NCBI RefSeq assembly: GCF_056712565.1
Contig: NZ_CM160072.1
Reading direction: 5' to 3' (one strand)
Length of the DNA stretch: 64,000 nt
Below are positions 37,637-58,647 of the stretch, piece after piece. How positions within the stretch are numbered: the stretch's first letter is position 1; each line of letters starts with the position of its first letter. The position numbers were made by a program, and so were the translations under genes. Under the pieces are notes generated by a model. It had not been told where the DNA came from. It did not search any database and was given only the letters and a program-made list of their open reading frames with translations.

Positions 37637-38793
37637 GTTTTAAAGCGCCCCCTGCCGTATCAGAACTGGGGAATGCTACAGGGTTTGACCTGTTCCTCGA
37701 GGATCGTAGCGGAGCTAGCCATGAAAAAATGATCCAGGCCCGAAATCAGCTTCTTGCTGAAGCGGCGAAAAGTCCAGCGTTAAACATGGTTCGTCCTAAC
37801 GGCATGAACGATGAGCCTCAGTTCCAGATTCTGATTGATGACGAGAAAGTTCAGGCGTTTAAACTGAGCATGAGCGACGTCGACAACATAATGTCAGCAG
37901 CCTGGGGTTCGATGTATGTAAATGATTTTAACGATCGTGGACGGGTGAAAAAAGTCTATATTCAGGGCGAACCCGGCTCACGTATATCACCGCAGGATTT
38001 TGATAAATGGTATGTCCGTAACAGTGATGGCGACATGGTTTCCTTTGCCTCTTTTGCAACAGGCAAATGGATTTATGGCTCACCAAAACTGGAGCAATAT
38101 AATGGTATCTCTGCTGTCGAAATCCTGGGGGAACCGGCACCAGGATACAGTTCCGGGGATGCAATGAAAGCAATTGAGGATATTGCGGCAAGACTTCCCG
38201 AAGGTTTCCATATTTCCTGGACAGGTTTGTCTTTTGAGGAACGACTTTCAGGTTCTCAGGCTCCTGCACTATATGCACTTTCACTGTTGATCGTCTTTCT
38301 GTGTCTGGCTGCACTGTATGAAAGCTGGAGCATTCCTTTCTCGGTCATGCTGGTTGTTCCGCTTGGTGTCCTGGGGGCTGTCTGTGCTACTTTGTTGCGC
38401 GGCCTTGGTAACGATGTCTTTTTCCAGGTCGGTTTATTAACAACAATAGGGCTGTCTGCGAAAAATGCCATACTTATCGTGGAGTTTGCTCGTGAATTGC
38501 ATGAGAAAGAAGGACTAAGCATTAAAGAGGCTGCTGTTGAAGCGGCGAGAGTGAGGTTAAGACCGATAATTATGACTTCGCTGGCATTTGTAATGGGGGT
38601 TATCCCACTGGCTGTCTCGACTGGAGCAAGTTCCGGAAGTAAACATGCCATCGGTACTGGTGTGGTTGGAGGGATGATCACTGCTACGATACTGGCAATC
38701 TTTTATATTCCTCTCTTCTATATGTTAATTGCCGGGTTCTTCAGCCGCAGAAATAAGAAATCATCGGATAAGACTGAAGCTGAGCAATCATAA
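37637..38793 (+). pseudogene. RND multidrug efflux pump (AcrB/AcrF-like), C-terminal ~350 residues only; 5' part removed at the IS2 junction
   Basis: [28 protein letters not shown]...[25 protein letters not shown]... aligns with AcrB residues ~690-1049; no N-terminal two thirds. Confidence 0.8.
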
Positions 38794-39881: not shown

Positions 39882-40237
39882 TTATGTAAGCGTTATTTAC
39901 TTAAGCGTGGATATATAAGAATGATATTATCAATATGTTGCTCATGAGTTTTTAATAGCATATAGGCTTGTTAACATAGCCCAGCAATATACTTTGCAGT
40001 GGGAGCAGGTATGCATACAGAACAGTGGGCGAGGACGAGCGTCCCTTTTCGAACAAGGTAGCAAAAGAGGAAGAAGAAAGACAAATACAACTGGGCCTGA
40101 AAGGGTAGTGTTTAAGCCCCCTTTCAGGGGGCCGTGTCAAAGCCGCCCGCTATGCAGATGGTTTTTTACTTTATCTGTTAAGCAAAAAAATGCCGCGATA
40201 AAGAAATTGTTACCGCGGCAGCGTCATAGCAATTTAC

Positions 40238-40783
40238 TTATTTTTTCTTGCCGCTGGAACGAGGACCTTTCTTTGCTGCCTCCTGCGGTACATCAGATTT
40301 TGTAGGTTTAGTGTTTTCTATTGAGGGTTTAACTGGTTGATGCTGCTCCACGGACTTCAGCGTTTCATCAGTGACATCCATACAGGATGCGCTGATTGAC
40401 GTATCAAGGTTAACCACCGGGAATGTCTGTGAAGGCGCGTTTTCAGCCTGCAGTGTCGGTTGTGCAGCAGGCACTTCAGGTTGAGGTTCTGCGACGCCGG
40501 CGGTCACTTTAGAGTGAATAATCTGCTCGATATGCTGCGCGGTGCGGGCGATCACCTTATGGGCATACACCTCGCCAACCCGGCTTGCCGCGCTGATGGC
40601 TGCCGCTACCGCCGCGTTAATTGCGCCCACTTCCCCTTCCAGCTTCACGGTCACCATCCCGCCGCCTTTCGTCAATTCATAGCCTACCAGACTAACGTTA
40701 GCGGATTTCATTGCGGCATCGGCGGCTTCTACCGCCGCAGACATCCCGACGGTTTCGATTAAGCCTAAACTTTTCCCAGACAT
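40238..40783 (-). CDS. BMC-H shell protein (PduA/EutM fold) with ~90-aa Pro/Lys-rich C-terminal extension
   Basis: MSGKSLGLIETVGMSAAVEAADAAMKSANVSLVGYELTKGGGMVTVKLEGEVGAINAAV... then a low-complexity tail; start at internal Met preferred over ORF-track start. Confidence 0.8.
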   Translation of the reverse strand: MSGKSLGLIETVGMSAAVEAADAAMKSANVSLVGYELTKGGGMVTVKLEGEVGAINAAVAAAISAASRVGEVYAHKVIARTAQHIEQIIHSKVTAGVAEPQPEVPAAQPTLQAENAPSQTFPVVNLDTSISASCMDVTDETLKSVEQHQPVKPSIENTKPTKSDVPQEAAKKGPRSSGKKK

Positions 40784-40827: not shown

Positions 40828-41979
40828 TTAACGTCCAACGTCTTCGTATAATAGCGCCGCTTTGTCCGTAACTTCCCACGGAAAGCTGTCGCGACCAAAG
40901 TGACCATAGCAGGCTGTTTTACGATAGCGGGGGACCAGCAGATCAAGCGTAGTAATGATGCCGAACACGCTAAGATCGAAATGGCTGTTAACGCCTCTCA
41001 GCAACGCTTCAGATGACACTGTTTGTGTACCGAAGGTGTTAATCCTGACGGAAACAGGGCGGGGCAGGCCGATGGCCCATCCCAACTGGACTTCACAGCG
41101 TGAGGCAAGCCCAGCGGCGACGATGTTTTTCGCCACATAGCGAGCAGCGTAGGCGGCGGAACGATCGACTTTCGACGGATCTTTGCCTGAAAACGCGCCG
41201 CCGCCATGGCAAGCCGCGCCGCCATAGGTATCAACAATAATTTTACGCCCCGTTAGCCCGCAGTCACCCACCGGCCCGCCAATCACAAAACTGCCTGCAG
41301 GGTTCACCAGAAAGCGGGTTTGTGGTGTGAGCCAGTGCGAAGGCATCACAGGTTTAACAATTTCTTCGATGACCGCTTCCCGTAGCGCGTCCAGAGAAAC
41401 GTCAGGGCTGTGTTGGGTAGACACCACAACGGTATCTACTGAATGAACACGATTATCCTGATAGCGCAGGGTAACCTGGCTTTTGGCATCAGGGAGTAAA
41501 AATGGTAACCGTTGGGATTTACGCAACTGCGCCTGGCGCTCCATCAGACGATGGGCGTATACCAGCGTGGCGGGCATCAGTTCCGACGTTTCATCACAGG
41601 CGTAACCGAAGGTGATGCCCTGATCGCCCGCCCCCAGTTCTTCCATCGAGTGGCCGCGAATGCCTTCAGCAATATTGGCGGACTGTTTGCCAAGGATATT
41701 TAATACACAGCAGGTATTGCCATCAAACCCCAATCGCGAATGGTCGTAACCAATCTCTTTTATGGTGTTGCGGACAATCTTCTCAATATCCACGGCGGCA
41801 TGGGTAGATATTTCTCCGGCAACAATAGTGGCACCAGTTTTCACCAAGCATTCACAGGCAACCTTACCCCACGGGTCCTGTAGGAGTATCGCATCCAAAA
41901 TGGCATCAGAAATTTGGTCCGCCATTTTATCGGGATGCCCTTCGGCAACGGATTCGGAGGTAAACAGGTAATCGTTCAA
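40828..41979 (-). CDS. S-adenosylmethionine synthetase paralog (MetK family) within the microcompartment locus
   Basis: 383-aa ORF with MetK signatures [71 protein letters not shown]. Confidence 0.9.
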
Positions 41980-42107
41980 AGCGAGCCCACTTGTTTGGGA
42001 AGTTTATTCCTATCTTAGGATAGGAACCTGACAAGTGGGCGTAAACTATCTTGCGGGCGTGTTGGACTATTTTGCTTTCATTATCGGGCCAATGCAAAAT
42101 CACGCCA

Positions 42108-43163
42108 TCACCGTGTAATTCCCGGGGACACGACTTTTCGATAATCAGAGGGGGTCATGCCAGTATCTTTTTTGAAGATGCGGCAAAAATAGTTTGAATC
42201 CTGGTATGCCAGTTCCAGCGCAATGGTATTTACTTGTAAGTCACTGAACCGCAATAACGATTTGGCGATAGTAATTTTACGCGTGGCAATATAGTTCGAA
42301 AACCCGAACCCGGTAATTTTCTTAAAGGTACGGCTCAAATAGCAGGCACTGACAAACGATTTTGCTGCCACGTCATCGAGCGTCAAGTTTCTGAGAATAT
42401 TTTTCTCAATATGGAATTTCGCTCGTTCGATAAAATCGATATTGCCTGTATAGCCTTTTAATGCGTAATCAAACAGCTCTTCGCTAATGGTCAGCAGGCT
42501 GATCATGATGCGGAAATAGCGGCTTTCCATCATGCCATACTGGTTGATGTCTTTGATCAGCGCGGCGACTTTACGGTTAGTCGGCATTAACTTTTCCCCT
42601 TTGGCGGTCATATACTGGCTAACTATTTCCAGAAAATCGATCACGTCTTTGCGCTTATCCTCTTCTATCATATCCACCGGACAGGCACCGTTGAGCGTGT
42701 CAAAAATAAAGTTGTGCCACTGGGTGTAATCGCAATCGTCTATCATGGCGAACACTTTCTGTTTTAGGGCGCGGGATTTTTCATTTTCTCCTTCGTCGAA
42801 TGCTAGGGTTTTTTTGATGGTGTCGGTCAAGATACATTTTTTCACTGGTTTGAGCAGATAATCATCCACTTTAAGGTTGTACATGCTGCGTACTATATCA
42901 AAGTCATCATTGGCCGTGATTACGATGATTTTAGTATCGCTGTTTTTTTTCTTCAGATATTCAATCACCTGTTTACCGTTCGGCAACGGAATATTAATGT
43001 CCACTAAGATCATATCGATTTGACTCAGTTGGTCAATTAAGTGAATCGCTTTTTTACCGGTTGAGGCTTCATGGATCGCAGCGTTTTCCACACACTGGGA
43101 GATAATCTGCCGCAGGGATTCTAATTCGATGGGCTCATCTTCAACGATAACAATGGTAAACAT
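42108..43163 (-). CDS. Response regulator with CheY-like receiver and C-terminal AraC-type HTH (YesN-like)
   Basis: 351-aa ORF MFTIVIVEDEPIELESL...DMILVDINIPLPNGKQV... and C-terminal AraC HTH. Confidence 0.85.
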   Translation of the reverse strand: MFTIVIVEDEPIELESLRQIISQCVENAAIHEASTGKKAIHLIDQLSQIDMILVDINIPLPNGKQVIEYLKKKNSDTKIIVITANDDFDIVRSMYNLKVDDYLLKPVKKCILTDTIKKTLAFDEGENEKSRALKQKVFAMIDDCDYTQWHNFIFDTLNGACPVDMIEEDKRKDVIDFLEIVSQYMTAKGEKLMPTNRKVAALIKDINQYGMMESRYFRIMISLLTISEELFDYALKGYTGNIDFIERAKFHIEKNILRNLTLDDVAAKSFVSACYLSRTFKKITGFGFSNYIATRKITIAKSLLRFSDLQVNTIALELAYQDSNYFCRIFKKDTGMTPSDYRKVVSPGITR

Positions 43164-43179: not shown

Positions 43180-44442
43180 TCAGGCTTCCTGCATTGGGAA
43201 CCGAAGTTTAATGGTTGTACCCATCCTGGGTTTGTTAGGGCTCATTATTTCCAAGCCATAGCTCTCGCCAAATAACAACTTCAATCTATTTTTTATGTTG
43301 TTAATGCCAATACTGCCTTTTTGCAATTTTTGGTCGCCTGATAAAATGCGATTAATGGTATCTGGTGCGATGCCGTCGCCATTGTCAGTGACTTCAATAA
43401 TCACGTTCAGGCCATCGTCCGTGGCACGGATCAGCAGATGACTATTGCTATCCCTTGGCTCCACTACGTAGTTAAAGAAGTTTTCCACCAGCGGTTGCAG
43501 GATCAAAAACGGGCAGACTACATCCAGATATTTTTCCGGGATATCGCACAGGTAATCGAAACGGTCTCTCATACGCACTTTTTGGATCGACATATAGTTG
43601 TTGACGTAATTTATTTCATTACGCAGAGTAATCAGGCCGTGACTATTTTTACGTAACAAATAGCGCATCATGTCAGAGAAATCGTGCACCATTGTTTCGG
43701 TACGCTGCGCATCTTCAAGAAAAGCTAACCGGCCAATGGTATTTAATACGTTAAATAAAAAGTGTGGATTTATCTGATAAGAGAGCGCTTTAAATTCAGC
43801 TTCATGTAGTGAGCGTTCTATCTCTACACGTTTTCTTAACTCATTAGCCAGTGCAAGATCCTTTTTACGAAGTTCGCGTTGGATATTATTGGTGTGCGCT
43901 TGTTCGACCAGATAAGACGATACGTGTAGTAACGTCGAGGCAGTAGACTCAAAACGCTCATACGGCATGCGACGTGTATTCTGGTGCAAATTAATTAACC
44001 AAGGATTATCTTTCCAGACGTCATTATTATTCAGAATATAGGAAATGCTCTGTTCTTTCTCTTCTTCGACTTTTACCTGACCGGAAATAAAAGCACCGAG
44101 ATAATGATCGTTAATCATGATTGGGACAGCGAATTCGACAAAACCGCAGTGGCAGCGATAAACCACCGGTTTGCGAGCGTGCATCGCGGCACGGCCACCA
44201 GCGTTGTCGCTTTCATAACAGTGGTGCGCCAGTGTCGGGTTGAGACGCGAACGCATGCAGAAGTCTGAAAAACCGCTGGGCTTAGTGACCGGGATACCAT
44301 TCTCATCCACAACCACGAGCGCGATCATCATTGATTTTGAAAAGTTGTCCTGCAGGGTCTGAAGGCGTTTTACATCCAAAAACTCATTTAATTTGTATTT
44401 ATTCTTCATACTTTCAGCCTGCATTTTTAAAAACATAATCAT
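43180..44442 (-). CDS. Sensor histidine kinase with N-terminal PocR-like small-molecule-binding domain (cytoplasmic, YesM/LytS-type core)
   Basis: 420-aa ORF; Cys/His-rich N-terminal domain ([22 protein letters not shown]...[14 protein letters not shown]), H-box [18 protein letters not shown]-terminal ATPase; no TM segments noted. Confidence 0.8.
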
Positions 44443-44651: not shown

Positions 44652-44713
44652 CTGTCAGAAAGCCCCACATGAACGATCACCACCTACATAGGAGGTGTTT
44701 TAAAATTGATCGA

Positions 44714-46515
44714 GTAGGAGGCGGGATCACTCCCGCCGTCCTCTCACACCACCGTACATGCGGCTCCGCATACGGCGGTTCATGTTAACACTGGAACTGC
44801 CTCTGCTGTTCCAGCAGTGATATCAGACCCTGCCTGCTGAACCACGCATTCTTTATCGCCTGATTCATATGGCTTGACTCTGAGTTCCACCATGGCCCGT
44901 GGTTGTTGTACGCTGAGATCATCGCCCTGTCCTTACTCAGTCCTGCTCTTTGCAGGTTCTTTGCCCGGGTTAGCGGTCTCTTCCACTGCCGCTACAACAA
45001 GCAACGCAGTTTCCGTTTGATCCAGCCATCCAGCTCCTCCAGCACTCCTCTGACCTCCGTCAGCCTGAAGTAGCTTATCCATCCACACAGCACTGGTGTC
45101 AGAGCATTGATTGTCGCTTTCACTGATTTGCTCCGGTTTCCCGTCGTCAGACTGTGGACTTTCTCCTTCAGCCTGTTCACGCTCGTCAGGGCTATCTTCA
45201 GCTTCGCCTGTTTGTGCCATGTCACACTGTACCCGAGGAACTTCCGATCCCACGGGCGCGCCACCGCGCTCTTCTTCTCATTCACCTTCAGTTTGTTCTC
45301 CACGAACGCCCTGATGTTCTTCAGCAGATGGTCGCCCGCTTTCCGGCTGCTTACGTAGATGTTGCAGTCGTCTGCGTAGCGGCAGAAGCTGTGTCCACGA
45401 CGCTCCAGTTCTTTATCCAGTTCATCCAGCAGGATGTTCGACAGTAACGGCGACAGTGGGCCGCCCTGCAGCATGCCCGCCTGCCGTTTCTCCCTTTGCC
45501 CGTCTTTAACCATTTCCGCTTTCAGGTAGCGGCGTATCAGTCACAGCACCCGCCTGTCCTTTATCGTTCTGGCCAGACGCGTCATCAGGAGTCTGTGATC
45601 CACCCGGTCGAAGAACTTCTCCAGATCCATATCCACCACCCACCGTTTGCCACCCCGTATGTAACGCTGTGCCTGTTGCACCGCCTGCTGGATAAGCCTG
45701 TCCACCACCGTCGGGATGCCTGAGGTTCTCACGCCGCCATCCGGCTTCGGGATATCCATCCGGCGTATTGTCCGCGGCTGGTAGTTTCCGTCAATCAATG
45801 CCTGCCTGACGCTGCGCCAGTTCTTCTTCAGCCACGGTTTCAACTCCGCCACGCTGAGGTTATCCACCCCCGCCGTGCCTTTGTTTTCCACCACGCGCTG
45901 ATAAGCCAGCATCAGGTTTTCTCTCGTTATCACCGCTTCCATCGTCAGCGGCACTTCCGCTTTCGTTTGCCCACCCGCCGCCGTGCTGATTTCAGCGCCA
46001 TCATGCAGCCCTGACGGATACTGTCCGTCTCCTCTGCCGCTGGTCGCAGTGGCCTGCGCTTGTGCTTCATTAATCATCATCGGGTTCGGATGTCCTAATC
46101 ACAGTTAATCATGTTCGGCCCTTCATGCTGCCGGTTTTGCAGCACTACTACGGCGTCGGCTGACTTCTGCCGCCCCATCCCGGCGCCTCACGGCGCCGGT
46201 AGCACACTGGCAGGGCGACAGATCTCCCGGGGTAATTCACGCGACTTTCCTGCTTATGCCTGTCGGCTTTACGTCACAGCGTTCCGTGTGAGTATCGGGC
46301 TTTGGTGATTAGTGCCACCTTACCCTGCTGCGCCGCCTTAACCGCTTCCTGTTCGTCAGGCCAGCATTTTGCATCCAGCTTCCTTCAGATTTCACCTCGC
46401 GATGAACACCCTTGCCTTCCGCTAACACTTCCCCTCACCGGGTGTGTGGAGGACTTTCACCTCTTAGTCGTTCTTCTGCCACCACAGTTGAAGAACAGCG
46501 CCAGTCACGGCGCAC
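44714..46515 (-). mobile_element. Group II intron (bacterial class C-like: inserted just downstream of an intrinsic terminator)
   Basis: Minus-strand 5' end GTGCG at 46511-46515, six nt after the terminator U-tract; domain V-like hairpin (GAACCGCCGTATGCGGAGCCGCATGTACGG) and domain VI-like hairpin near 44715-44780; RT ORF inside; 3' boundary approximate. Confidence 0.7.
44992..45942 (-). pseudogene. Intron-encoded reverse transcriptase/maturase interrupted by in-frame stop codons
   Basis: RT motifs (GVDNLSV, QGGPLSPLLSNILLDELD, FCRYADDCNIYV) and X-domain (CGWISYFRL); in-frame TGA at 45541-45543 and TAG at 44992-44994 after which the frame still reads RQWKRPLTRAKNLQ. Confidence 0.7.
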
Positions 46516-46565: not shown

Positions 46566-47471
46566 TTAAAACAGGGGAACCAAGGTAAATAATCCAATGG
46601 TCGCCAACAGATTAATCATCGTGGTCATAATGGTGATGACCATCGCCGGCGGGTCAATATGTGTATCGCCGTGGATCAGGAAGATACGCGACATCAGTTC
46701 ACCCAATATCGCGCAAATTATGCCAACGATAGCAGCCCAAATCAGGCTACCTGATGGCACCGCTACCAACGCGGCAGGCAGCGAAATATGATGTGACACC
46801 GGTACCTGAGTATTGAAATGCAGGAAAATCAGTGAGAACGCGGAAATACCAAACGCCAGCAGCGCGCCGTTGCCGCCAAACTTCAGGCCTAAAAAGCCTG
46901 CCATCAAGCCAATACCCAAGCCCAGCACGGAAAGCTGCGGAATGCGGCTATGGTAAGGTATCCAGCACTTATCCTGCGGCGGATAGCAGTGACGAATTCC
47001 CTGCTCCGGTTTTCCAAACAGGCCAGTTTTACCGAAAACCAGACGCGAGACCACGCCAGAAATCACCACGGTTAGTGCCACGGTATCGGTCCAAGCATTG
47101 CCGGACGGGAAGGCCGGAATCTGGTTCAACCCCCAGGCGATGATGTAACCAACCGCCCCAAAAACCCCGCCTACCAGCAGCACATCGTAAGCCGCCAGAC
47201 CGCTCAACCCGGCAGTGATATCACGCCCGGAACCCAGCTTGCCTTTCTTCGCTGCATACGCCGTCGCCGCAACCCCAGCGGCAAAGCCGCCGGTGTGCGG
47301 GCCAAACAGTCCAAACGGAAAAGTAATAAAGTCCGATGATGCTCCGGTAATAATTTGCACTACCGTCATGGCGATAACCAGAAGCCCAACGAATTCAAAC
47401 GCCGCCAGCGCGCCAACAGCCGCACCAAATATGCCGCCGCCGAAGGCAACTACAATATCTAAGCTATTCAT
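46566..47471 (-). CDS. Polytopic membrane protein, probable transporter (family not recognised; no NPA motifs, so not a GlpF/PduF-type channel)
   Basis: 301-aa Gly/Ala-rich hydrophobic ORF directly downstream of the activase gene. Confidence 0.55.
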   Translation of the reverse strand: MNSLDIVVAFGGGIFGAAVGALAAFEFVGLLVIAMTVVQIITGASSDFITFPFGLFGPHTGGFAAGVAATAYAAKKGKLGSGRDITAGLSGLAAYDVLLVGGVFGAVGYIIAWGLNQIPAFPSGNAWTDTVALTVVISGVVSRLVFGKTGLFGKPEQGIRHCYPPQDKCWIPYHSRIPQLSVLGLGIGLMAGFLGLKFGGNGALLAFGISAFSLIFLHFNTQVPVSHHISLPAALVAVPSGSLIWAAIVGIICAILGELMSRIFLIHGDTHIDPPAMVITIMTTMINLLATIGLFTLVPLF

Positions 47472-47607
47472 CTAGCTTACCTCTGTAATTAAATCAAATG
47501 ACAATATAAGTAATGCAGATTGCTCTATATTTTTAAAATTGAAATAGTATTCATGCGTAACAAATAAACAAGCGCAGCATTTTTTCGCACTCTTATTACA
47601 TCTTTTA

Positions 47608-48525
47608 TTAACCGCCGATATGGCAGTTAAAACCTAAGGATTCAACCATTGCTTTTAACTCTGCCATTTGGGCTTCTTCGATACTTTTTGTATCGCCCAT
47701 CGGATACTGGCGACCAAGCAGATTATATTTATTTTCACCGAAGCTGTGATAAGGCAATAAGTGAATGGTATCGACGTTCTGCATCAGGCGGGCGAACTCC
47801 GCAATATTATGGATTTCCTGCGAATTGTCATTCACTCCTGGGATCACAGGAATACGCACAACCACTTTGGTTAAAAAGGAGATGCGCAGCAGATTCTCCA
47901 GAATCACTCTGTTATTCACGCCGGTGTTGCGCTCATGGATTTCCGGATCGATGGCTTTAATATCGGTCAGAGCAAGATCGACATAGGGAAATATCTCATC
48001 AATCACCGCTTTGGTGGTGAAGCCGCTTGTTTCAATAGCGGTGTGCCAGCCTTTGGCTTTACAGGCTTTAAGCAGCTCGCGGGCAAATTCCGGCTGCGCC
48101 AGCGGTTCACCACCGGACAGGGTAATCCCGCCGCCTGAACGCCGGTATAAATTCTCTTCTTTTTCCAGTTCGCGCATCACTGCCGTTACCGACATACGCT
48201 TGCCCTTCATTTCCAGCGCACGGGTAGGGCAAATCTCAGTACATTTCCCACACTGAATACAGCGGTCGCGATTGATAAACCAGGCATTAGTAGTGGAAAG
48301 AGCCTGTTGTGGGCAAGCATCAATACATTTTCCACAGCGGATGCAATCATTCTTTTTAAATAATAACTCTGGGCTGTGACGTTGTGATTCAGGATTACTA
48401 CACCATTTGCAGGACAGCGGGCAGCCTTTAAAAAAAGGAATGGTTCGAATGCCTGGACCATCATGCAAAGAATAGCGTTGAATATTAAATATGACGCCTT
48501 CGGTTTCGTACTCAACTTTATTCAT
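47608..48525 (-). CDS. Glycyl-radical enzyme activating enzyme (radical SAM, with two ferredoxin-like 4Fe-4S motifs)
   Basis: 305-aa ORF with CPLSCKWCSNPE radical-SAM motif and CIRCGKCIDACP / CIQCGKCTEICP clusters. Confidence 0.9.
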   Translation of the reverse strand: MNKVEYETEGVIFNIQRYSLHDGPGIRTIPFFKGCPLSCKWCSNPESQRHSPELLFKKNDCIRCGKCIDACPQQALSTTNAWFINRDRCIQCGKCTEICPTRALEMKGKRMSVTAVMRELEKEENLYRRSGGGITLSGGEPLAQPEFARELLKACKAKGWHTAIETSGFTTKAVIDEIFPYVDLALTDIKAIDPEIHERNTGVNNRVILENLLRISFLTKVVVRIPVIPGVNDNSQEIHNIAEFARLMQNVDTIHLLPYHSFGENKYNLLGRQYPMGDTKSIEEAQMAELKAMVESLGFNCHIGG

Positions 48526-48633
48526 AACATCACTCTATATTTACCAGATGAATTACCTTTTCAGATAAAAGTAACAACCAGAAGTCGTGGAGAAAGTAAC
48601 GGGCTATATATTGATACATAGCCCGTCTGGTAT

Positions 48634-51186
48634 TTACGACAGTTGTTGCTCAGTACGGCTGATTATGTCGTCCTGAACTTCTTTCGCTAAAACTACCCAC
48701 TGGGCGCTATAGCCCGCAACGCGTACCACCAGATCCTGATGTTGCTCAGGATTTTTCTGGGCTTCGATCAAAGTGTTGCGGTCGATAACGTTAAATTGAA
48801 CGTGCATCCCTTTCTTATCGAAGTAGTGACGTATCAGGCCGCTGAAGTTGCGCAGACCGTTCTCGCCAGCCAAAGAAGACGGCAGGAATTTCTGATTATA
48901 GAGCGTACCGTTGGAGGCGATAAAGTGATCCAGTTTGGCAACTGAGTTGGCTGCGGCGGTTGGGCCAAGGGTGTCTTTACCCTGACGTGGAGATACGCCA
49001 TCCGCCAACGGCTCTTTCGCCAGACGGCCATCCGGCAGTGCGGCAACGTCTTTACCAAACAGCACGTTCGCAGACACCGGATAGATACCAGCCTGGAACT
49101 GGCCACCGCGCGGGTTGGTATATTTCTCAACTTCCTGGCAGTAGATCAGCGCACATTTACGCGCTACTAAATCCACGTCATCGATGTCGTTACCGAAGCA
49201 CGGTGTGTTTTCCAGAATACGACGGATCTCCTCGTGACGGGACATAGTGCCGGATTGCACCGGTGCTGCACTGCCGGAAGTCAGCTGGCGATAAACTTCG
49301 TTTTTAATCGCTGCCGGATCCAGCGCGCCATGCTGTTCAATGATGCGTTTCACCACATCGTAGATATCCTGCTCGTTGAGCGAGGATTTCGCCGCTGGAG
49401 TGTGCGGGTTCGCACCCACCGGATAACCGAAGTTGGCGTCCAGTGCGCTTTTCAGTTCGCTCAAAGACAGTTTACGATCTTCGAATACCTGTTTCTGGAT
49501 GGCATAGACGGAGTCGCCGGTATCGGCTACGCCGAATGCTTGCGGCCCAGTAAAGTTGTAAATCGCCCCGCCTTCCTGGAGAGATTTACCACGGCCGATA
49601 CAGTCGTCGACCAGTGCTGATAGGAACGGCAGCGGGCAGCGTTCGCCGTGGGCAATATCCACGCTGTTACAGGCTTCAACCAGTTGATGAACGAAGTGCG
49701 CCATCTGTTTCTGGAACGCGGTGTAGAAGTCCTCCATGCTGGTGAACTGAGTCAGTTCGCCAGTCACTGGGCCTAGCTGTTTATTGCCAACGCGACCGTT
49801 GTTCAGGGTGATTTCCAGCACTTTTGCAACGTTAAAGAACGCGGCGTCATGCCAGCCCTCGGTGCGATGCGGTGCCTGCGGCTCTACGCAGCCGATGATA
49901 CAGTAATCACGCGCATCACGCAGCGAAATGCCACGGTTCTGCAGCGCCGGGATGATTACTTCATCGTTGTACATTGCCGGAACGCCCAGGCCCATACGCA
50001 CCAGCTCGCAAGCGCGATACAGAAACTCATCCGGAGTACCCTGCCATACGCGGATTGAGAAGGATGGCTGCGGCAGACGCACATGGGCAGTCGCTTCCAT
50101 ACACATGTAGCTCAGATCGTTAGTTGCGTCGCGACCGTCTTCTGTCTGGCCGCCACAGCACAGGTTCTGGAACACTGCGTAACCGGCAAACGCCTGGGCA
50201 GAGACTTCGTCACGCGTTTTGTTAATGTCGTTAAGCTTGATCCAGCAGCAATCCACCAGTTCCTGCGCGAATTCACGCGAGATAGATTTGTCCGACTCCA
50301 GATACGGGTACATATACTGGTCGAAACGCCCCGGGGAGATAGAATGACCGCTGGATTCAATCTGTAACATGCTCTGAATAAACCAGAATGTCTGGCATGC
50401 TTCCCAGAATGTGGTAGCACCGTATTCCGGCACGCGAGTACAGTTTTGAGCAATCTGCTCCAGTTCGCGTTTACGGGTCGGATTGCTCTCCTGCTGCGCC
50501 AGACGGGATGCTTCTTCAGCGTAACGATGGGCGAAACGGATCGCTGCGTTATAACTGATCAGCACCGCATTATAGAACTGTTCTTTCTTTATATATCCTG
50601 GTTCAGTGCGATCTAATGATTCCAAGGCACGGCTAACTTCATTAATGATACCACGGAAACCAATTTTCAGCACTTTACCGTAGTCAACACTGACATGACC
50701 GACGCCCCCGAAGAAGTAGTTACCAACAGTGAATACACCGCTCGCCATACTCTCTTTAGTGCCTTCTGACATGTAAGATGCCGCCAGAGCACTGGTAGTT
50801 TTACCCGGCCAGTATTTAAATGCTTCATGAAGCTCCTGAGCAGTCTTTTTCGGGATAACAAACGGGTCGGCAATACGGTGTTCCATAGTCTCAAACTCTT
50901 TTTCCACCCAGTCGTAGGAGAACTCAGGGCAGATTTCAGTTGAGCGAGGATTAATAGTTACCGCTCCAACGATTAATTCGTCTGGGCGAATTGTTACCGG
51001 TAATTGGTTAAAGATTTTTTCCACCACTTTAGCACGACGCATAATCGCGGGCAGTTGTTCTGTTTCTTTATATGCTTCGGTTGCTAACACCGCGCGTTCT
51101 GATTCCACATACGGCTTCGCCGTCAGGATCATATTTCTCAGTCTTACAACACGGTCTGTCGGATTAGAAAAGCCTTTCTCTAACAT
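48634..51186 (-). CDS. Glycyl radical enzyme of the dehydratase/eliminase clade (probably B12-independent 1,2-propanediol dehydratase; choline TMA-lyase or another diol/amino-alcohol lyase not excluded)
   Basis: 850-aa ORF with catalytic GCVEP motif (DYCIIGCVEPQ) and C-terminal glycyl radical motif VVRVAGYSAQW; substrate assignment is inference from locus context. Confidence 0.85.
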   Translation of the reverse strand: MLEKGFSNPTDRVVRLRNMILTAKPYVESERAVLATEAYKETEQLPAIMRRAKVVEKIFNQLPVTIRPDELIVGAVTINPRSTEICPEFSYDWVEKEFETMEHRIADPFVIPKKTAQELHEAFKYWPGKTTSALAASYMSEGTKESMASGVFTVGNYFFGGVGHVSVDYGKVLKIGFRGIINEVSRALESLDRTEPGYIKKEQFYNAVLISYNAAIRFAHRYAEEASRLAQQESNPTRKRELEQIAQNCTRVPEYGATTFWEACQTFWFIQSMLQIESSGHSISPGRFDQYMYPYLESDKSISREFAQELVDCCWIKLNDINKTRDEVSAQAFAGYAVFQNLCCGGQTEDGRDATNDLSYMCMEATAHVRLPQPSFSIRVWQGTPDEFLYRACELVRMGLGVPAMYNDEVIIPALQNRGISLRDARDYCIIGCVEPQAPHRTEGWHDAAFFNVAKVLEITLNNGRVGNKQLGPVTGELTQFTSMEDFYTAFQKQMAHFVHQLVEACNSVDIAHGERCPLPFLSALVDDCIGRGKSLQEGGAIYNFTGPQAFGVADTGDSVYAIQKQVFEDRKLSLSELKSALDANFGYPVGANPHTPAAKSSLNEQDIYDVVKRIIEQHGALDPAAIKNEVYRQLTSGSAAPVQSGTMSRHEEIRRILENTPCFGNDIDDVDLVARKCALIYCQEVEKYTNPRGGQFQAGIYPVSANVLFGKDVAALPDGRLAKEPLADGVSPRQGKDTLGPTAAANSVAKLDHFIASNGTLYNQKFLPSSLAGENGLRNFSGLIRHYFDKKGMHVQFNVIDRNTLIEAQKNPEQHQDLVVRVAGYSAQWVVLAKEVQDDIISRTEQQLS

Positions 51187-51234
51187 ATAAAACTCCCGAA
51201 TATATTTTGTTAACCTTGCGGAGATGCCAGGGTA

Positions 51235-51810
51235 TTAATGAATAATGCTAGTGCCCATTTGAGTAATAAAGTGACGTAATATTGCTGGATGCCCCATCCA
51301 GGTAGTCGCGGTTATTAAATTACCATCCACAATGGCTTCATCATCTGCGGCAGTGACCCACTGGCCACCCGCCATTTCCACTTCCGGTTTTACCGTAAAA
51401 TATCCCGTCAGTTTCCGGCCTTTTAATACCCCAGCAGCGGCCAGAATTTGTGGGCCATGACAAATTGCAGCAACAGGTAATGTTAAATTCATCGCGTAAT
51501 GCACGATATCCAATACTGACTTATTTAATCGCAAGTATTCCGATGAACGCCCACCAGAAATATAAACACCACTATATTCCTGTAACCTTATGTCATCAAA
51601 TGATGCAGTTAATCTAAAAAGATGTCCGGGTTTTTCGGTGTAGGTCTGATCACCTTCAAAATCATGAATCGCGGTTTTAATAAACTCGCCGGTACGTTTT
51701 CCCGGACACACTACATCCACTCTGAAACCTAACATGTTTAATGCCTGCCATGGCACCATGACTTCATAGTCTTCAGAGAAATCGCCTGTGATAAGTAATA
51801 TCTTCTTCAT
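51235..51810 (-). CDS. DJ-1/PfpI-family protein (class I glutamine amidotransferase-like)
   Basis: Start at internal MKKILLITGDFSEDYEV (191 aa); nucleophile-elbow motif VAAICHGPQILAAAGVL. Confidence 0.75.
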   Translation of the reverse strand: MKKILLITGDFSEDYEVMVPWQALNMLGFRVDVVCPGKRTGEFIKTAIHDFEGDQTYTEKPGHLFRLTASFDDIRLQEYSGVYISGGRSSEYLRLNKSVLDIVHYAMNLTLPVAAICHGPQILAAAGVLKGRKLTGYFTVKPEVEMAGGQWVTAADDEAIVDGNLITATTWMGHPAILRHFITQMGTSIIH

Positions 51811-51820
51811 AAGCGGACTC

Positions 51821-52120
51821 TCAAAACTGGTTATCGTCTTCCTCAATGATTCGCATGGCTTCATGCACCGCCGCGACTTCGCCAAAAATGGCCAATGTGG
51901 TGATATGCTGAGGGCAACTGCCAAAGATTTCTGATACCACCACATTGGCGCTTTTACTGGCTACGTCGGCATAAAAATAGAGATCCGGAACCGGCAGTAT
52001 TAACAAACCAATGGCGTCGATGCGAATCAAATCCAAACGCGAACGAAACTCCCCGGGCATACGCCGTTTCAACATAGCCAAAATATCCGGGGTCGGTGCG
52101 TTTATGATTCGTTTTTTCAT
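51821..52120 (-). CDS. BMC shell protein, EutS/PduU-type (circularly permuted BMC domain)
   Basis: 99-aa ORF ...IGLLILPVPDLYFYADVASKSANVVVSEIFG...TLAIFGEVAAVHEAM... resembling EutS/PduU. Confidence 0.65.
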   Translation of the reverse strand: MKKRIINAPTPDILAMLKRRMPGEFRSRLDLIRIDAIGLLILPVPDLYFYADVASKSANVVVSEIFGSCPQHITTLAIFGEVAAVHEAMRIIEEDDNQF

Positions 52121-52143
52121 CTTTAAGTCACCCTTCGCGATAG

Positions 52144-53661
52144 TTAGCGAATATTCAGCGCTTCAACCATTACACAGCGACGACGGCGTGCAAACGAACG
52201 CGCTGACGTAAGTCCCTCGCCGGTCGGTCCGGCAATCGTAAAGGTGGCATGCCCTTCACCGCCCACCCCCAGCCCTGCATAAGAGGGACCATTTTTAACA
52301 AAGATGGTGGTCTGGATCAGGCGCGCCATTTTGGTCAGCTTTTCGACGTTGGTGGAGTGCATAACCGCGGTATGACGATTGCCGTGCTCCACTTTCACCG
52401 CCAGCTCAATGGCTTCATCAACATTGTCTACGCGCACCACCGGCAGGACCGGCATCATCAGCTCATGCACCACAAACGGATGTGTTTTCTCAGCCTCAAT
52501 TAAGATGACTTTGATATCGTCGCCAACCTGGATTCCCAGTTGTTGCAGGATATAGCGCGCATCTTTGCCGACAAAGGCGGTATTCGGCCCAGTGCCTTTT
52601 TCATTAAGCACCAACGATTGCAGTTGTTGACTTAACTTCTTATCGCACAACAGATAGGCACCGCTTTTCTTCATGCAGTGAATCAGATAGTCCGCTACCT
52701 GGTTCACAACAATCACCTCTTTTTCCGCCACGCACGGCAGGTTGTTGTCGAAGCTACAGCCCTTAATGATGTCGCGGGCTGCTTTTTCGATATCCGCCGT
52801 TTCATCTACCACAGCTGGCGGGTTACCTGCGCCTGCACCAATCGCTTTTTTACCTGATGACATCACGGTTTTCACGATGGCTGGACCGCCAGTCGCTACC
52901 AGCATGTTGATACGTGGGTCGTTGATCAGGACGTTGGTATTGTCGATGGACGGTTTGGTCACCGTTACCACCATGTTCGCCGGTGCGCCCAACTGGGCAA
53001 GCTTGTTGTTGATCAGCTCAACCGCGTACAGCGACACTTTGCGCGAGCGCGGATGTGGACTGAACACCACAGTGTTGCCTGCCGCCAGCATGCCTATGCT
53101 GTTGTTGATAATGGTTTCGGTCGGGTTAGTCGTTGGTGTAATCGAACCAATCACTCCGAACGCAGAGTATTCGATCAACGTTAAACCCCCGTCTCCGGAA
53201 ACCGCGCTGGTGGTCAGATCTTCGATACCTGGCGTTTTCAGCGCTGCGACGCGGTTTTTGATCAGTTTGTCCTCGTAATTCCCCATGCCGGTCTCTTCCA
53301 CCGCCATACGGGAAAGGGCACACAGCACATCTTCCTGCAGGAAGACATCGCGAATGCCATTGATAAACGAGGCGCGGTCTTGCATAGAACAGTGGCGATA
53401 CTGTACCTGTGCCAAGACGGCGGCGGAAATCGCCTCATCCATGGTATCGAATGCTCCAGTGCTAGCATTCGCTACCTTCGCTACCTGAGAGATCGCACTG
53501 GCGTCGCGCACGGAAGAGTGCTGCGCCAACGCCTTAGCGACAATTTCATCCAACCCGTCGACCCGCGCTGCTTCTGACGTGGCGGGAGCTTCATCCGGTG
53601 TTGCTTTGGTGAATTTGCTCAGGATGGTCGAGACAGCCTGAGCGATTTCAATATCATTCAT
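52144..53661 (-). CDS. CoA-acylating aldehyde dehydrogenase (PduP/EutE family)
   Basis: 505-aa ORF with aldehyde dehydrogenase core including catalytic Cys region NNLPCVAEKE. Confidence 0.9.
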   Translation of the reverse strand: MNDIEIAQAVSTILSKFTKATPDEAPATSEAARVDGLDEIVAKALAQHSSVRDASAISQVAKVANASTGAFDTMDEAISAAVLAQVQYRHCSMQDRASFINGIRDVFLQEDVLCALSRMAVEETGMGNYEDKLIKNRVAALKTPGIEDLTTSAVSGDGGLTLIEYSAFGVIGSITPTTNPTETIINNSIGMLAAGNTVVFSPHPRSRKVSLYAVELINNKLAQLGAPANMVVTVTKPSIDNTNVLINDPRINMLVATGGPAIVKTVMSSGKKAIGAGAGNPPAVVDETADIEKAARDIIKGCSFDNNLPCVAEKEVIVVNQVADYLIHCMKKSGAYLLCDKKLSQQLQSLVLNEKGTGPNTAFVGKDARYILQQLGIQVGDDIKVILIEAEKTHPFVVHELMMPVLPVVRVDNVDEAIELAVKVEHGNRHTAVMHSTNVEKLTKMARLIQTTIFVKNGPSYAGLGVGGEGHATFTIAGPTGEGLTSARSFARRRRCVMVEALNIR

Positions 53662-53721
53662 CTTTAAATTCCTTACTACTCTTCATCTACCGACCGCGCC
53701 GCGTGCATCGTCATCAGATGC

Positions 53722-54507
53722 TTAGATATATGGCGTCGTGGTGGATTTAATTTCCACCGGATCTAACGTGGAGAGCAGTTGTAGACCGACTTCACGCGCG
53801 GCAATCACCGCCTGACGTACTGCACCGGAATCACCGGAGAAGGTGAAGATCACTTCGTTACTAAAGCTGGTGCCTTGCGACGGGCTGGCATAACCCACCG
53901 GGTCAATCACGGCGGATTTCGCCGCAGCGTCGGCAATCACTAGGCCAATCGCCGCAGGCGAGGCACAGGTCATCCCGAAGGATTTACCAATCGGCGCACC
54001 CAGCGCTTTATTCAGCGCGTAGCTGGCACGAGCGGTGTACTGGAATTCAAGATGTCCGGCTGACGAGCCATAAACGTCACCCATGGTGCGTTCAATTTCA
54101 GACAGCGCCACTTCAACCGCACGCCTGACGTCGGAAACATCAGACGCACCAAAAATAATTAAGCAACCGTGTCCGCCACCTCCTTCGGTATCGCGGGCCA
54201 GCTCAATAGAAATAATTTCGCTGTTGGTTGCTTTAATCGCTTCGTCAGCCGCAAAAATTTGCGGGCCTGCGCCAGTACGTGCGCCAAGAATACCGATAGA
54301 GCGATATTTCTTGTCGATATTCATGACTTCATGCAATTGATTATCAACATTGGCAATCACTAGGCCGATAGTGTGGCCCAACGCAGTGCCGACAAATTCC
54401 GTAATACCGCAACCAGCGAAATTTGCTGCTGTTTTAGCTTCCGGTGAGATATCGGTTTGTTTATTCATTACGTCAGATATAATCTGCTCAACAAGATTAT
54501 CTCTCAT
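53722..54507 (-). CDS. BMC-T shell protein (tandem BMC domains, PduB-like)
   Basis: 261-aa ORF with two BMC-like repeats. Confidence 0.75.
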   Translation of the reverse strand: MRDNLVEQIISDVMNKQTDISPEAKTAANFAGCGITEFVGTALGHTIGLVIANVDNQLHEVMNIDKKYRSIGILGARTGAGPQIFAADEAIKATNSEIISIELARDTEGGGGHGCLIIFGASDVSDVRRAVEVALSEIERTMGDVYGSSAGHLEFQYTARASYALNKALGAPIGKSFGMTCASPAAIGLVIADAAAKSAVIDPVGYASPSQGTSFSNEVIFTFSGDSGAVRQAVIAAREVGLQLLSTLDPVEIKSTTTPYI

Positions 54508-54528
54508 GATCAGTATCCTTTATTGTTA

Positions 54529-54810
54529 TTAACCGATAGCCTTCGGTAGAATTTTTTCCACCTCAATGTGTGGGCGTGGAATAACATGTACGGAGACCAG
54601 TTCTCCCACTTTACTCGCAGCAGCGGAGCCCGCATCTGTCGCGGCTTTCACTGCGCCAACGTCGCCGCGAACCATCACAGTCACCAAGCCGGAGCCGATT
54701 TTTTCATAACCCACTAGGGTCACGTTGGCAGATTTCACCATGGTATCTGCAGCTTCAATTGCAGAAACCAGACCTTTCGTTTCAACCATTCCTAATGCTT
54801 CTTGTTGCAT
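54529..54810 (-). CDS. BMC-H shell protein (PduA/EutM-like)
   Basis: Start at internal [57 protein letters not shown] (93 aa). Confidence 0.85.
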
Positions 54811-55094
54811 AACGACCTCAATATTTCCGATAGAAAGAAAACGTGCACAGAGGAATAGCAATCTACGGATTCACCCATGTGCATTAATTATTTAATTATC
54901 ATAATGCTAAGGTTATTCAGACAAAATGTTTTGCGCGTCAGTGGGACTATCTTGCTTTTGCATTCCCGCAATTGACAATAAAATCCACCCGAGGTTTGTA
55001 ATAAAAGATCTGCGTTTAAATTTCCTTGCAAAATAGCCCCGCTCTGAATAGCAATCATAATTACTGTTAAAACTGTCGTATTTTTGCCAATTAG

Positions 55095-56291
55095 TTATGC
55101 CGTGCGGGCAATCTCCGCTGCATCTATAGCAATCATTTTTTCTTCATTGGTTGGGATGACCGCAATCTTCGTGGTGTCGGTTTTAGAAATCAGTCCGCTA
55201 CGTCCGCCGAACAGCTGCTGGTTACGTTCTTTATCCAGTTCCAATCCCAGCGCCTGAAGGCGTTGCACGGTAAGTTCTCGAATTAACGCCGAGTTTTCGC
55301 CAATTCCACCGGTGAAAATCAGCGCATCGAAGCGTTTAAGCGAGGTCACGTGGCCGCCGATATGTCGTGCGAGACGATGTACTAACACGTCGATGGCTAA
55401 CGCTGCCCGTTCGTGGCCCTCATCACGCGCCTGCTGAAGGGTGCGGCAATCGCTGGATAAGCCGGAAATCCCCATTAGGCCGGACTGGTTATTGAGCATT
55501 TTGTACAGCGTGTCGAACGTTTGACCTGTGCGTTTCGCCAGATATGCGACGACACCAAAATCAAGATCCCCGCAGCGCGTGCCCATTACCAGCCCTTCCA
55601 GCGGGGTCATACCCATTGAGGTGTCAATGCTCGTGCCGTTTTGCACCGCACATAGCGATGAACCGTTGCCCAAGTGGGCAATCACGATGCCATGATCCGC
55701 CGGGTCGAGATCTAGTGATGCAAGCGCCTCGGCGGCAATATAGCGGTGAGATGTTCCGTGAAAGCCGTAACGTCGCACCATATAATCTTGCTGGAACTCC
55801 AGCGGGATCGCATAGGTGTAAGCAGCCGGAGACAAGGTCTGGTGGAACGCAGTATCGAACACCGCAATATGCGGCAACGCGGGCAACAGAGCCCGAGCCG
55901 CTTCAATACCAATCAGGTTGGCAGGGTTATGCAAAGGGGCCAGCACCGACAGCGCGCGGACTTTTTCGATCACATCATCGGTAACCAGTACTGATCTTTT
56001 GAAGTCGCTGCCGCCATGAGCCACGCGGTGCCCAACGGCGTTGATGGCTTCCAACAGTTGCTGTTCGTCGAGCTTCGCGAAGAGCACTTTGAGCGCATGC
56101 TGATGGCTGGCGTCATCCAGCGCGACAGTGGATTTATGGCCGTCTCGGTCTTTAAACGTTATGACAGCATGATCAATACCCAGTCGTTCCGCTAGGCCCG
56201 ACAGCAACGGCTGATCTGCATCCTGAGGAATGACGGAGAATTTCATTGATGAGGAACCACAATTAATCACTAATACACAAGCTAAAGACAT
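55095..56291 (-). CDS. Acetate/propionate kinase (AckA/PduW/TdcD family)
   Basis: Start at internal MSLACVLVINCGSSSMKF (398 aa); ASKHA motifs FHGTSHRY and FTGGIGENS. Confidence 0.85.
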   Translation of the reverse strand: MSLACVLVINCGSSSMKFSVIPQDADQPLLSGLAERLGIDHAVITFKDRDGHKSTVALDDASHQHALKVLFAKLDEQQLLEAINAVGHRVAHGGSDFKRSVLVTDDVIEKVRALSVLAPLHNPANLIGIEAARALLPALPHIAVFDTAFHQTLSPAAYTYAIPLEFQQDYMVRRYGFHGTSHRYIAAEALASLDLDPADHGIVIAHLGNGSSLCAVQNGTSIDTSMGMTPLEGLVMGTRCGDLDFGVVAYLAKRTGQTFDTLYKMLNNQSGLMGISGLSSDCRTLQQARDEGHERAALAIDVLVHRLARHIGGHVTSLKRFDALIFTGGIGENSALIRELTVQRLQALGLELDKERNQQLFGGRSGLISKTDTTKIAVIPTNEEKMIAIDAAEIARTA

Positions 56292-56319
56292 GATGCCCCC
56301 TGAAATGGACTGCAAAAAA

Positions 56320-56817
56320 TTAACGGGTTGTTGTGAGGGGATAACGCAGAACGCTAAACTGCGCCATCGCCTGGCGGGCGATGAGCATATCTTCCTCAAC
56401 ACTGCCGCCGCTGATGCCGATGCCGCCTAGTAAGCGCCTGCCCGACCAGCAGGGAAAACCACCGCCGAAGCAGCAGATATCTTTTTCTTTCTCAAGGCCG
56501 TACAAATCACCACCCGGCTGTACCAGCGTTGCCAGTTCGTGAGTTGGCATTTTGAGAGCTACCGCGGTCCAGGCCTTTTGTGGTGCCAAGGTATGGCTGA
56601 CCAGCAGGGCGTTATCCATGCTGAAGAAAAAACGCTGCTGACCGCAGGCATCCACTAGGCTAAAAACGATCGATACATTGCTGGACTGTGCTATTTCCCG
56701 GACCAACTTTGCCAGCAGTTCACTGTCCTCCAGGCTCAGCGACATCCGGAGTTCCGGTAACTGCGTGGCAATAGCCTCGTTAATCCAGTTGTCGAGTGAA
56801 GCCTCATTCGCAGACAT
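56320..56817 (-). CDS. GlcG/PduO-C-terminal-like (DUF336, heme-binding-type) protein
   Basis: 165-aa ORF with C-terminal GGIGISGGSVEEDMLIARQAM motif. Confidence 0.65.
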   Translation of the reverse strand: MSANEASLDNWINEAIATQLPELRMSLSLEDSELLAKLVREIAQSSNVSIVFSLVDACGQQRFFFSMDNALLVSHTLAPQKAWTAVALKMPTHELATLVQPGGDLYGLEKEKDICCFGGGFPCWSGRRLLGGIGISGGSVEEDMLIARQAMAQFSVLRYPLTTTR

Positions 56818-56844
56818 AAGTATTCCTCAGCGTACGCGCCGCTA

Positions 56845-57114: not shown

Positions 57115-57125
57115 ATTTCCTCCGG

Positions 57126-57830: not shown

Positions 57831-57834
57831 TGAT

Positions 57835-58593: not shown

Positions 58594-58647
58594 TCGCCGC
58601 TGTCAATCAGCGCGGCCAATTCGTGAAATCGGCAGTTTTCGGGGCTG

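Follow-up and report, generated by a model that had tools for sequence, protein, structure and literature searches.

GrpR, an apparently active methionine adenosyltransferase paralog encoded in the Grp glycyl radical microcompartment locus of Escherichia coli

The window analyzed here, a stretch of 64,000 nucleotides from contig NZ_CM160072.1 (assembly GCF_056712565.1), harbors the 19-gene cluster grpA-grpS at positions 40238-60592, all on the minus strand, as annotated for the identical region of E. coli ATCC 11775. The genes grpA-grpO were mapped onto the window from this annotation through the open reading frame (ORF) coordinates (Table 1). Their products are an alcohol dehydrogenase, a phosphotransacylase, a EutJ-like chaperone, a flavoprotein, shell proteins, a heme-binding protein, a propionate kinase, an aldehyde dehydrogenase, a protease, the diol dehydratase GrpM, the activase GrpN, and a permease. 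The gene names (grp for glycyl radical propanediol) reportedly stem from work by Lundin et al. in 2020 on the uropathogenic E. coli strain CFT073, in which each grp gene is said to have been deleted.

The gene on which we focused, grpR, is located between grpQ and grpS, in one cluster with the genes for the glycyl radical enzyme (GRE), the activase, and the BMC shell proteins; the aldehyde dehydrogenase, phosphotransacylase, alcohol dehydrogenase, and propionate kinase genes belong to this cluster, too. Family scans of the grpR neighbors agreed with the RefSeq annotation. An earlier note, made from the sequence alone, had described the setting as a glycyl radical microcompartment locus and the gene as co-oriented with a PocR kinase, a response regulator, and a shell gene. 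Both descriptions were confirmed, since the GRE and activase genes lie in the same cluster and all these genes are on the minus strand. Among the terminator-like sites listed for the window, none was located in the grpQ-grpR or the grpR-grpS spacer.

Table 1. Genes and sequence elements of the grp locus in the window
Feature	Position	Strand	Description and basis
grpA-grpO	46566..60592	-	Enzyme and shell genes that make up the main part of the Grp (GRM3-type) microcompartment cluster
grpM	48634..51186	-	Glycyl radical diol dehydratase; TIGR01774 (788 bits) and annotation
grpN	47608..48525	-	Glycyl-radical activating enzyme (radical SAM); TIGR02494 (415 bits) and annotation
Group II intron	44709..46406	-	Between grpO and grpP; Rfam RF02001, RF01998, RF00029
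Reverse-transcriptase/maturase ORF of the group II intron	45541..46080 and 44992..45513	-	Split in two; ORFs and annotation
grpP	43180..44442	-	PocR-domain sensor histidine kinase; Pfam PocR/His_kinase in orthologs
grpQ	42108..43163	-	Response regulator with AraC-type HTH
grpQ-grpR spacer	41980..42107	-	128 nt; conserved across genera (ortholog alignments of 6 and 16 spacers)
Extended hairpin 1, TTTTGC...GCAAAA	42100-42069	-	Two compensatory pairs at the base; conserved as a structure at the base only
Invariant box GCAAGATAGTTTAC with -10-like GATAGT	42054-42041	-	Ortholog alignment
Clade-specific hairpin	42040-41985	-	Ends 5 nt before the TTG; fold z-score of -4.19
TAAGAT box	42017-42012	-	Conserved spacer element
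grpR	40828..41979	-	Methionine adenosyltransferase (MetK paralog), 383 aa, TTG start
grpS	40238..40783	-	BMC-H shell protein with long C-terminal tail; 44 nt downstream of grpR
Terminator-like hairpin	40191..40220	-	Intrinsic type, 11 pairs followed by T7; closes the grpPQRS unit

The grpR gene is an uninterrupted ORF, the coordinates of which are exactly those of the earlier note. An in-frame stop is present 9 codons upstream of the TTG, and the next ATG corresponds to Met19, beyond His15 and Asp17. Because of the upstream stop, and because a start at Met19 would remove these two residues, the TTG is the only usable start; it is the sole one that keeps the catalytic N terminus. Against the NCBIfam metK equivalog model TIGR01034, GrpR scored 588.3 bits (cutoff, 309.4 bits; model positions 1-373 of 377), and its best matches among solved structures were E. 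coli MetK entries (residues 3-381; E value of approximately 3e-165). The domains PF00438, PF02772, and PF02773 were detected on a protein 99% identical to GrpR (P0001) and on all 120 relatives described below. RefSeq (PGAP) names the identical gene grpR, [quoted passage not shown] and the DNA identity is 100% in E. coli ATCC 11775, S88, APEC O1, and many others. The listed grpR-positive E. coli genomes match at two places, grpR and the housekeeping metK. The latter is approximately 65.5% identical to grpR in DNA and, in a sensitive DNA search, was found in essentially every E. coli genome. The intact ORF, the 588-bit score, and the two matching places per listed genome thus bear out the claim that a full-length second MetK is encoded here.

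Alignment with MetK of strain K-12 revealed 63% identity without internal gaps (383 versus 384 aa). We take the catalytic and ligand residues of E. coli MetK to be His14, Asp16, Glu42, Glu55, Gln98, Asp118, Lys165, Phe230, Asp238, Arg244, Lys245, Lys265, Lys269, and Asp271 (mature numbering), which, according to structures and mutagenesis, bind ATP or triphosphate, Mg2+, K+, or methionine. All 14 residues are kept in GrpR, and 13 of them are invariant across 110 full-length relatives, the exception being Phe230, which is replaced by Leu in one relative. Disruptive active-site substitutions, named beforehand as evidence against the proposal, were found at none of the 14 residues. Furthermore, nine housekeeping MetKs (gamma- and betaproteobacterial ones plus one from a Lactobacillale) share 175 invariant positions, of which 134 are retained by at least 95% of the GrpR family. 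At eight of the housekeeping-invariant positions, the family has a residue of its own: S12A, T44C, V107I, M123T, R162L, T228A, Y301W, and P338V, and the family has approximately nine cysteines versus four in the enteric housekeeping MetKs. Apparently, GrpR is a catalytically competent MetK isozyme.

Both termini of GrpR are flush with MetK, and an encapsulation peptide (an amphipathic helix of approximately 18 residues on a linker) was detected at neither of them. C-terminal tails of 7-13 residues are present in some GrpR orthologs; they are unconserved and absent in E. coli. Without an encapsulation extension at either terminus of GrpR, SAM supply inside the compartment finds no support in the sequence.

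The 120 closest database relatives of GrpR are 70-99% identical to it and come from Escherichia, Enterobacter, Atlantibacter, Leclercia, Silvania, Buttiauxella, Pectobacterium, Brenneria, Dryocola, Rahnella, Raoultella, Klebsiella, Symbiopectobacterium, Acerihabitans, and Vibrio. A phylogeny against housekeeping MetK had been suggested in the earlier note. For the neighbor-joining tree, which covers GrpR relatives and housekeeping MetKs, housekeeping metK was taken from mislabelled chromosomes in a plasmid collection. The GrpR relatives formed one separate clade in 200 of 200 bootstraps. The housekeeping MetKs of Enterobacterales and Aeromonas were likewise united in all 200, with the GrpR clade outside; support for the GrpR clade as the sister of the gammaproteobacterial housekeeping MetKs was weak (98 of 200). 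GrpR is 59-64% identical, about equally, to all proteobacterial housekeeping MetKs. Within its clade, the E. coli and Vibrio copies are 69% identical, whereas the housekeeping MetKs of E. coli and Aeromonas are 85% identical; similarly, GrpR is approximately 74% identical to its Raoultella ortholog, compared to 97.6% for the housekeeping metK of E. coli and Klebsiella. This pattern of distances and the fast divergence within the clade show that grpR did not arise by recent duplication of the resident metK. By these comparisons, GrpR represents an old lineage that evolves faster and moves together with the locus. The MetKs encoded in clostridial and alphaproteobacterial loci may be orthologs of this gammaproteobacterial clade or may have been recruited independently.

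The grpR clade is under purifying selection. Between E. coli and Atlantibacter, dN/dS was 0.067 for grpR, 0.063 for grpN, 0.052 for grpQ, and 0.049 for grpO. The grpR value exceeds the housekeeping metK value (0.015-0.019) three- to fourfold.

Among 5426 complete E. coli genomes, 538 (9.9%) carry grpR. The gene is full-length in all 538 and, in 535 of them, at least 99% identical to the grpR analyzed here. The GRE gene grpM was likewise found in 538 of the 5426 genomes, and its split by identity band and replicon equals that of grpR.

The genes for the PocR kinase, the response regulator, MetK, and the BMC-H protein form a four-gene unit also in Vibrio, Pectobacterium, Atlantibacter, Rahnella, and Raoultella, as seen at the loci of Vibrio sp. 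EJY3, Pectobacterium parmentieri, Atlantibacter hermannii, Rahnella victoriana (on a 723-kb plasmid), and Raoultella planticola. In all these loci, the MetK gene is the third of the unit, and GRE, activase, and shell genes adjoin. The unit and the main operon converge in Pectobacterium, Atlantibacter, Rahnella, and Raoultella; the Vibrio unit shares its strand with the other locus genes and is located upstream of them. The E. coli unit is co-directional with the main operon, and the group II intron separates the grpP side from grpO. Every GrpR relative for which the context was retrieved sits in such a module, and in each orthologous module inspected, the next gene after that for MetK encodes the BMC-H protein.

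Two loci show what the system looks like without grpR. A contig of Rahnella perminowiae aligns with R. victoriana on either side of grpR, but approximately 50 nt stand in place of the 1.15-kb ORF, and grpP, grpQ, and grpS are all intact; as the contig is only 3.9 kb long, we regard this precise deletion as provisional. Furthermore, a related GRE microcompartment locus on plasmids of Citrobacter, Salmonella, Enterobacter, and Kosakonia, the GRE of which is approximately 60% identical to GrpM, contains no metK. Therefore, grpR is accessory and not obligatory.

The unusual start codon of grpR is the only non-ATG start among the 19 grp genes in the window, and in 22 orthologous loci we counted 11 TTG, 9 GTG, and 2 ATG starts (non-ATG in 20 of 22). 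The Shine-Dalgarno sequence of grpR is weak; the housekeeping metK has an ATG with AGGTGA. The TTG start and the poor Shine-Dalgarno sequence suggest that GrpR may be made in small, catalytic amounts. A degenerate pattern from the spacer region matched 20 species genomes, 17 of them from Enterobacterales, and in 16 of these 17 the pattern lies at a fixed distance before a MetK start. The matches in Methanothermococcus, Sulfurovum, and an epsilonproteobacterial MAG had no MetK nearby and were treated as chance.

The conserved spacer elements (Table 1) were compared with known regulatory signals. The 14-mer GCAAGATAGTTTAC has one exact copy in the window, upstream of grpR. It was rejected as an operator common to the grp promoters, because the six other sites, each with 3 mismatches, are no more than expected by chance. 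In the GATAGT motif, A2 and T6 are invariant and an acceptable -35 element is missing; a scan with the sigma-70 consensus returned no site in the grpQ-grpR spacer. The best three-box match to the met box (AGACGTCT repeats) upstream of grpR reached 11 of 24 positions, and the positive control, K-12 metK, reached just 14 of 24, a narrow margin that gives the scan little power. The TTG-proximal hairpin was discarded as a family-wide mask of the ribosome site, since it is limited to the Escherichia/Atlantibacter/Silvania/Citrobacter clade. With the Rfam covariance models, no match at gathering score was obtained in the grpR leader. One subthreshold match (42156-42191; E value of 0.81) is at chance level and lies inside grpQ, and a SAM riboswitch or another known cis-regulatory RNA in the leader was dismissed for want of a convincing Rfam match. 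It is possible that the spacer combines an internal promoter with deliberately weak translation of grpR.

RefSeq and the microcompartment literature already contain the gene with its name and locus, as well as the idea that it provides SAM for the activase. A SAM synthetase was listed among the ancillary genes of GRM3-type loci, with SAM for the activase as the rationale (Axen, Erbilgin & Kerfeld 2014, PMC4207490), and builders of synthetic GRE microcompartments express MetK alongside the activase on the same grounds (PMC8872734). Of the local SAM supply proposed in the earlier note, the part on the activase may stand, as reasoning already put forward in 2014; if local is taken to mean inside the compartment, the proposal finds no support, as GrpR lacks an encapsulation extension. 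New here are the separate clade, the dN/dS values, the module in five other genera, the lack of an encapsulation peptide, the non-ATG starts, the R. perminowiae deletion, and the metK-less plasmid locus.

Expression data are available from two published systems. In a 2025 study, grpR was used as the reporter of the cluster, and qRT-PCR revealed lower grpR mRNA levels in a grpP/grpQ deletion mutant in the presence of 1,2-propanediol (1,2-PD) under anaerobic, but not aerobic, conditions (PMC11724981). This decrease could partly be a polar effect, grpR being directly downstream of the deleted genes. In the same paper, grpQ is described, with reference to Lundin 2020, as required for the induction by 1,2-PD (PMC11724981). 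Later papers cite Lundin 2020 for the cluster and for its 1,2-PD induction via GrpPQ, and state on the same authority that more than 10% of the ECOR strains ferment 1,2-PD. In Clostridium beijerinckii, the GRM3 metK (CIBE_4889) adjoins a response regulator and a kinase gene and was induced on rhamnose (log2 values of 9.1, 8.1, and 6.6; GRE, 12, 10, and 6.9) (PMC6384099). Thus, the co-expression with the GRE operon that the earlier note had asked about has in effect already been observed (PMC11724981 and, for C. beijerinckii, PMC6384099). In line with its suggestion that grpR is regulated differently from the housekeeping metK, grpR mRNA depends on grpP/grpQ under anaerobic conditions with 1,2-PD (PMC11724981).

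Our preferred reading, to which we assign a probability of roughly 0.7, is that GrpR is an active, GrpPQ-controlled MetK isozyme which acts in the cytosol and raises the SAM supply for GrpN, and which is helpful but not indispensable. It builds on the identity of GrpR, its intact active site, the purifying selection, and the synteny, and on the GrpPQ-dependent expression reported in the literature. According to this model, grpR would be transcribed with grpP and grpQ or just downstream of them, together with grpS, and 1,2-PD under anaerobiosis would switch it on, unlike the control of the housekeeping metK. In the cytosol, GrpR would then turn ATP and methionine into SAM, topping up the cofactor that is cleaved by the radical-SAM activase GrpN, the presumed consumer of the GrpR product; one SAM would be spent per glycyl radical installed on GrpM. 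Three points of this model are our inference: the synthesis of SAM by GrpR in vivo, the importance of this SAM to GrpN, and a site of action outside the shell.

The glycyl radical is regenerated in each turnover, so the SAM demand of activation should be small compared to the cellular pool. This expected low demand, the R. perminowiae deletion, and the metK-less plasmid locus are points against a need for GrpR. A rival view is that GrpR is a dispensable passenger, an active but redundant MetK kept mainly by its linkage to the mobile grp cluster; the housekeeping MetK would cover the activase, and grpR could be lost without a phenotype. Such a view would account for the retention of grpP, grpQ, and grpS next to the precise grpR deletion, for a related GRE microcompartment locus that does without metK, for the weak TTG start, and for a divergence much faster than that of the housekeeping MetK (approximately 74% identity to Raoultella versus 97.6% between E. 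coli and Klebsiella). In the study of Lundin et al. from 2020, only 8 of 19 single grp deletions reportedly abolished the fermentation of 1,2-PD, which may also count in its favor. However, neutrality does not fit a dN/dS of 0.067, the 110 relatives show next to no variation at the catalytic residues, and the gene is full-length in all 538 E. coli carriers. Moreover, linkage alone hardly explains why the order kinase/regulator/MetK recurs in the Clostridium GRM3 locus. We consider mere passage with the cluster rather unlikely.

Other readings start from the neighbors of grpR. The shell gene immediately after grpR in all loci examined could mean that GrpR works in or at the microcompartment and regenerates SAM from the methionine that the activase releases, with ATP from the propionate kinase GrpG, so that the activase would be independent of SAM crossing the shell. 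Lundin et al. are said to have proposed in 2020 that the Grp system recycles cofactors internally, which fits such recycling. It is also consistent with the restricted passage of large cofactors through shells, as described in PMC11626177. Against it, GrpR is flush with MetK at both ends and lacks an encapsulation peptide, and the tails of its orthologs are unconserved. Piggy-back encapsulation may nevertheless occur. E. coli MetK is a large tetramer, and GrpR is by analogy expected to be one, too, which further argues against a place in the lumen; we give lumenal recycling little chance. The neighboring regulators prompt a different thought: MetK always accompanies two regulatory genes and not enzymes, even in the convergent modules and in Clostridium, and the upstream spacer and the non-ATG start (20 of 22 loci) are conserved, as might be expected if GrpR coupled, for example, the methionine or SAM status to the GrpPQ output instead of providing bulk SAM. 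The complete conservation of the catalytic residues, however, indicates that catalysis is what is selected, GrpR contains no extra domain, and we know of no precedent. A regulatory or moonlighting function seems very improbable to us. Finally, the kinase/regulator/MetK arrangement found from Clostridium to Enterobacterales could be taken to mean that GrpR is a low-abundance, separately tuned enzyme that takes part in a loop at or in the microcompartment or in feedback on GrpPQ, an idea we hold to be unlikely. Under it, GrpR would not be a plain copy for bulk SAM; it would form a methionine-to-SAM loop with the activase or feed the SAM or methionine status into GrpPQ. The conserved grpQ-grpR spacer and the non-ATG start in 20 of 22 loci were named as support for it.

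As a discovery, GrpR matters little, and its residual value is practical. If the cytosolic SAM supply for GrpN is the correct reading, GrpR would be a natural case of a pathway with its own supply of a radical-SAM cofactor, a design that synthetic GRE microcompartments copy. Its separate clade, the absence of an encapsulation peptide, the weak start, and the natural deletion offer handles for testing the need of an extra MetK.

Comparison with known systems places GrpR as follows. From GrpR of E. coli CFT073, no difference was detectable: the RefSeq name and product are the same, as is the place between grpQ and grpS; this comparison was made through the annotation and other E. coli copies. 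With the housekeeping E. coli MetK (PDB 7LL3, 1RG9, and others), GrpR has the three-domain fold family and the catalytic residues in common, but it differs in sequence (63% identity), in its own clade, in its nine versus four cysteines, in the TTG start, and in its reported induction by 1,2-PD through GrpPQ. The pdu loci, with PduO, PduS, PduGH, and the cob genes beside pdu, likewise carry the radical-cofactor genes of their signature enzyme (PMC4207490). These Pdu and cob support genes serve adenosylcobalamin, and several of their products are encapsulated, whereas GrpR would serve SAM and has no encapsulation peptide. A parallel in arrangement and expression is the GRM3 SAM synthetase CIBE_4889 of C. 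beijerinckii, which, like grpR, adjoins a regulator and a kinase gene and is co-induced with the GRE.

The spacer between grpQ and grpR is conserved in the alignments of orthologous spacers (A1 and A2). It contains a TAAGAT box, an extended hairpin (TTTTGC...GCAAAA), and a box of invariant sequence, GCAAGATAGTTTAC, which includes the -10-like motif GATAGT. These elements lie at a fixed distance of 79 to 88 nt from the MetK start, and the conserved element was detected in the genomes of 17 Enterobacterales species. It may act as a promoter, an operator, or an RNA element.

Only grpR, of the 19 grp genes in the window, begins with a codon other than ATG. At 22 orthologous grpR loci, the start codon was TTG (11/22), GTG (9/22), or, at the remaining 2/22, ATG. 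In contrast to the TTG of grpR, the housekeeping metK has an ATG start and the Shine-Dalgarno sequence AGGTGA. The proteins also differ: GrpR carries eight family-specific substitutions (residues 12, 44, 107, 123, 162, 228, 301, and 338), each at a site where nine housekeeping MetKs all share one residue, and the GrpR family has roughly double the number of cysteines (9 versus 4 in housekeeping MetK).

In Rahnella perminowiae SL6, grpR is precisely deleted, with approximately 50 nt in place of the 1.15-kb ORF (positions 2376-2427 of contig L026); grpP, grpQ, and grpS are retained, as is the conserved element of the spacer. Since this is a single short contig (3.9 kb) with low coverage, the deletion needs confirmation. 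The Citrobacter freundii plasmid pE51_001 (locus L039) harbors a distinct glycyl radical enzyme (GRE) microcompartment locus lacking metK. Its GRE is approximately 60% identical to GrpM and is also present on plasmids of Salmonella, Enterobacter kobei, Kosakonia, and C. braakii. The pE51_001 locus is flanked by IS elements.

In E. coli, the grpPQRS module (window 40238-44442) and the main grp operon run in the same direction, whereas the two are convergent in Pectobacterium, Atlantibacter, Rahnella, and Raoultella (loci L004, L006, L007, and L008). An inversion must therefore have taken place between the two arrangements. At the junction in E. coli, a group II intron is present, and its position corresponds to the exact joint between the module and the main operon. 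Because its reverse transcriptase/maturase ORF is in two pieces, the intron-encoded protein is probably defunct.

Immediately downstream of grpS, decayed genes were observed (window 37255-39900), including a transposase fragment and pieces of TetR- and AraC-family genes, consistent with a location of the grp cluster within a degraded genomic island. Furthermore, according to the annotation of the identical ATCC 11775 region, a CP4-like island remnant lies between the grp side and cadCBA.

Features of the grp region (window positions) and of the pE51_001 locus
Feature	Position	Strand	Details
CP4-like remnant genes	~24900-36700		cbtA/yeeU toxin-antitoxin pair, antirestriction, JAB/RadC, DUF932, WYL, GTPase, inovirus Gp2-family
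Integrase fragment	within ~24900-36700		in CP4-like remnant
Truncated RND efflux permease	37729..38793		in decayed region
grpR start codon	41977-41979	minus	TTG
grpQ-grpR spacer	41980-42107		conserved
Group II intron	44709-46406	minus	grpO/grpP interval; Rfam RF02001, RF01998, RF00029
Reverse transcriptase/maturase ORF	45541..46080 + 44992..45513	minus	in intron
pE51_001 GRE locus	L039 12853-25409		pduA/pduB-like shell, GRE, activase, MIP channel, phosphotransacylase (PTAC), PduM, EutN, aldehyde dehydrogenase (AldDH), PduQ, PocR regulator
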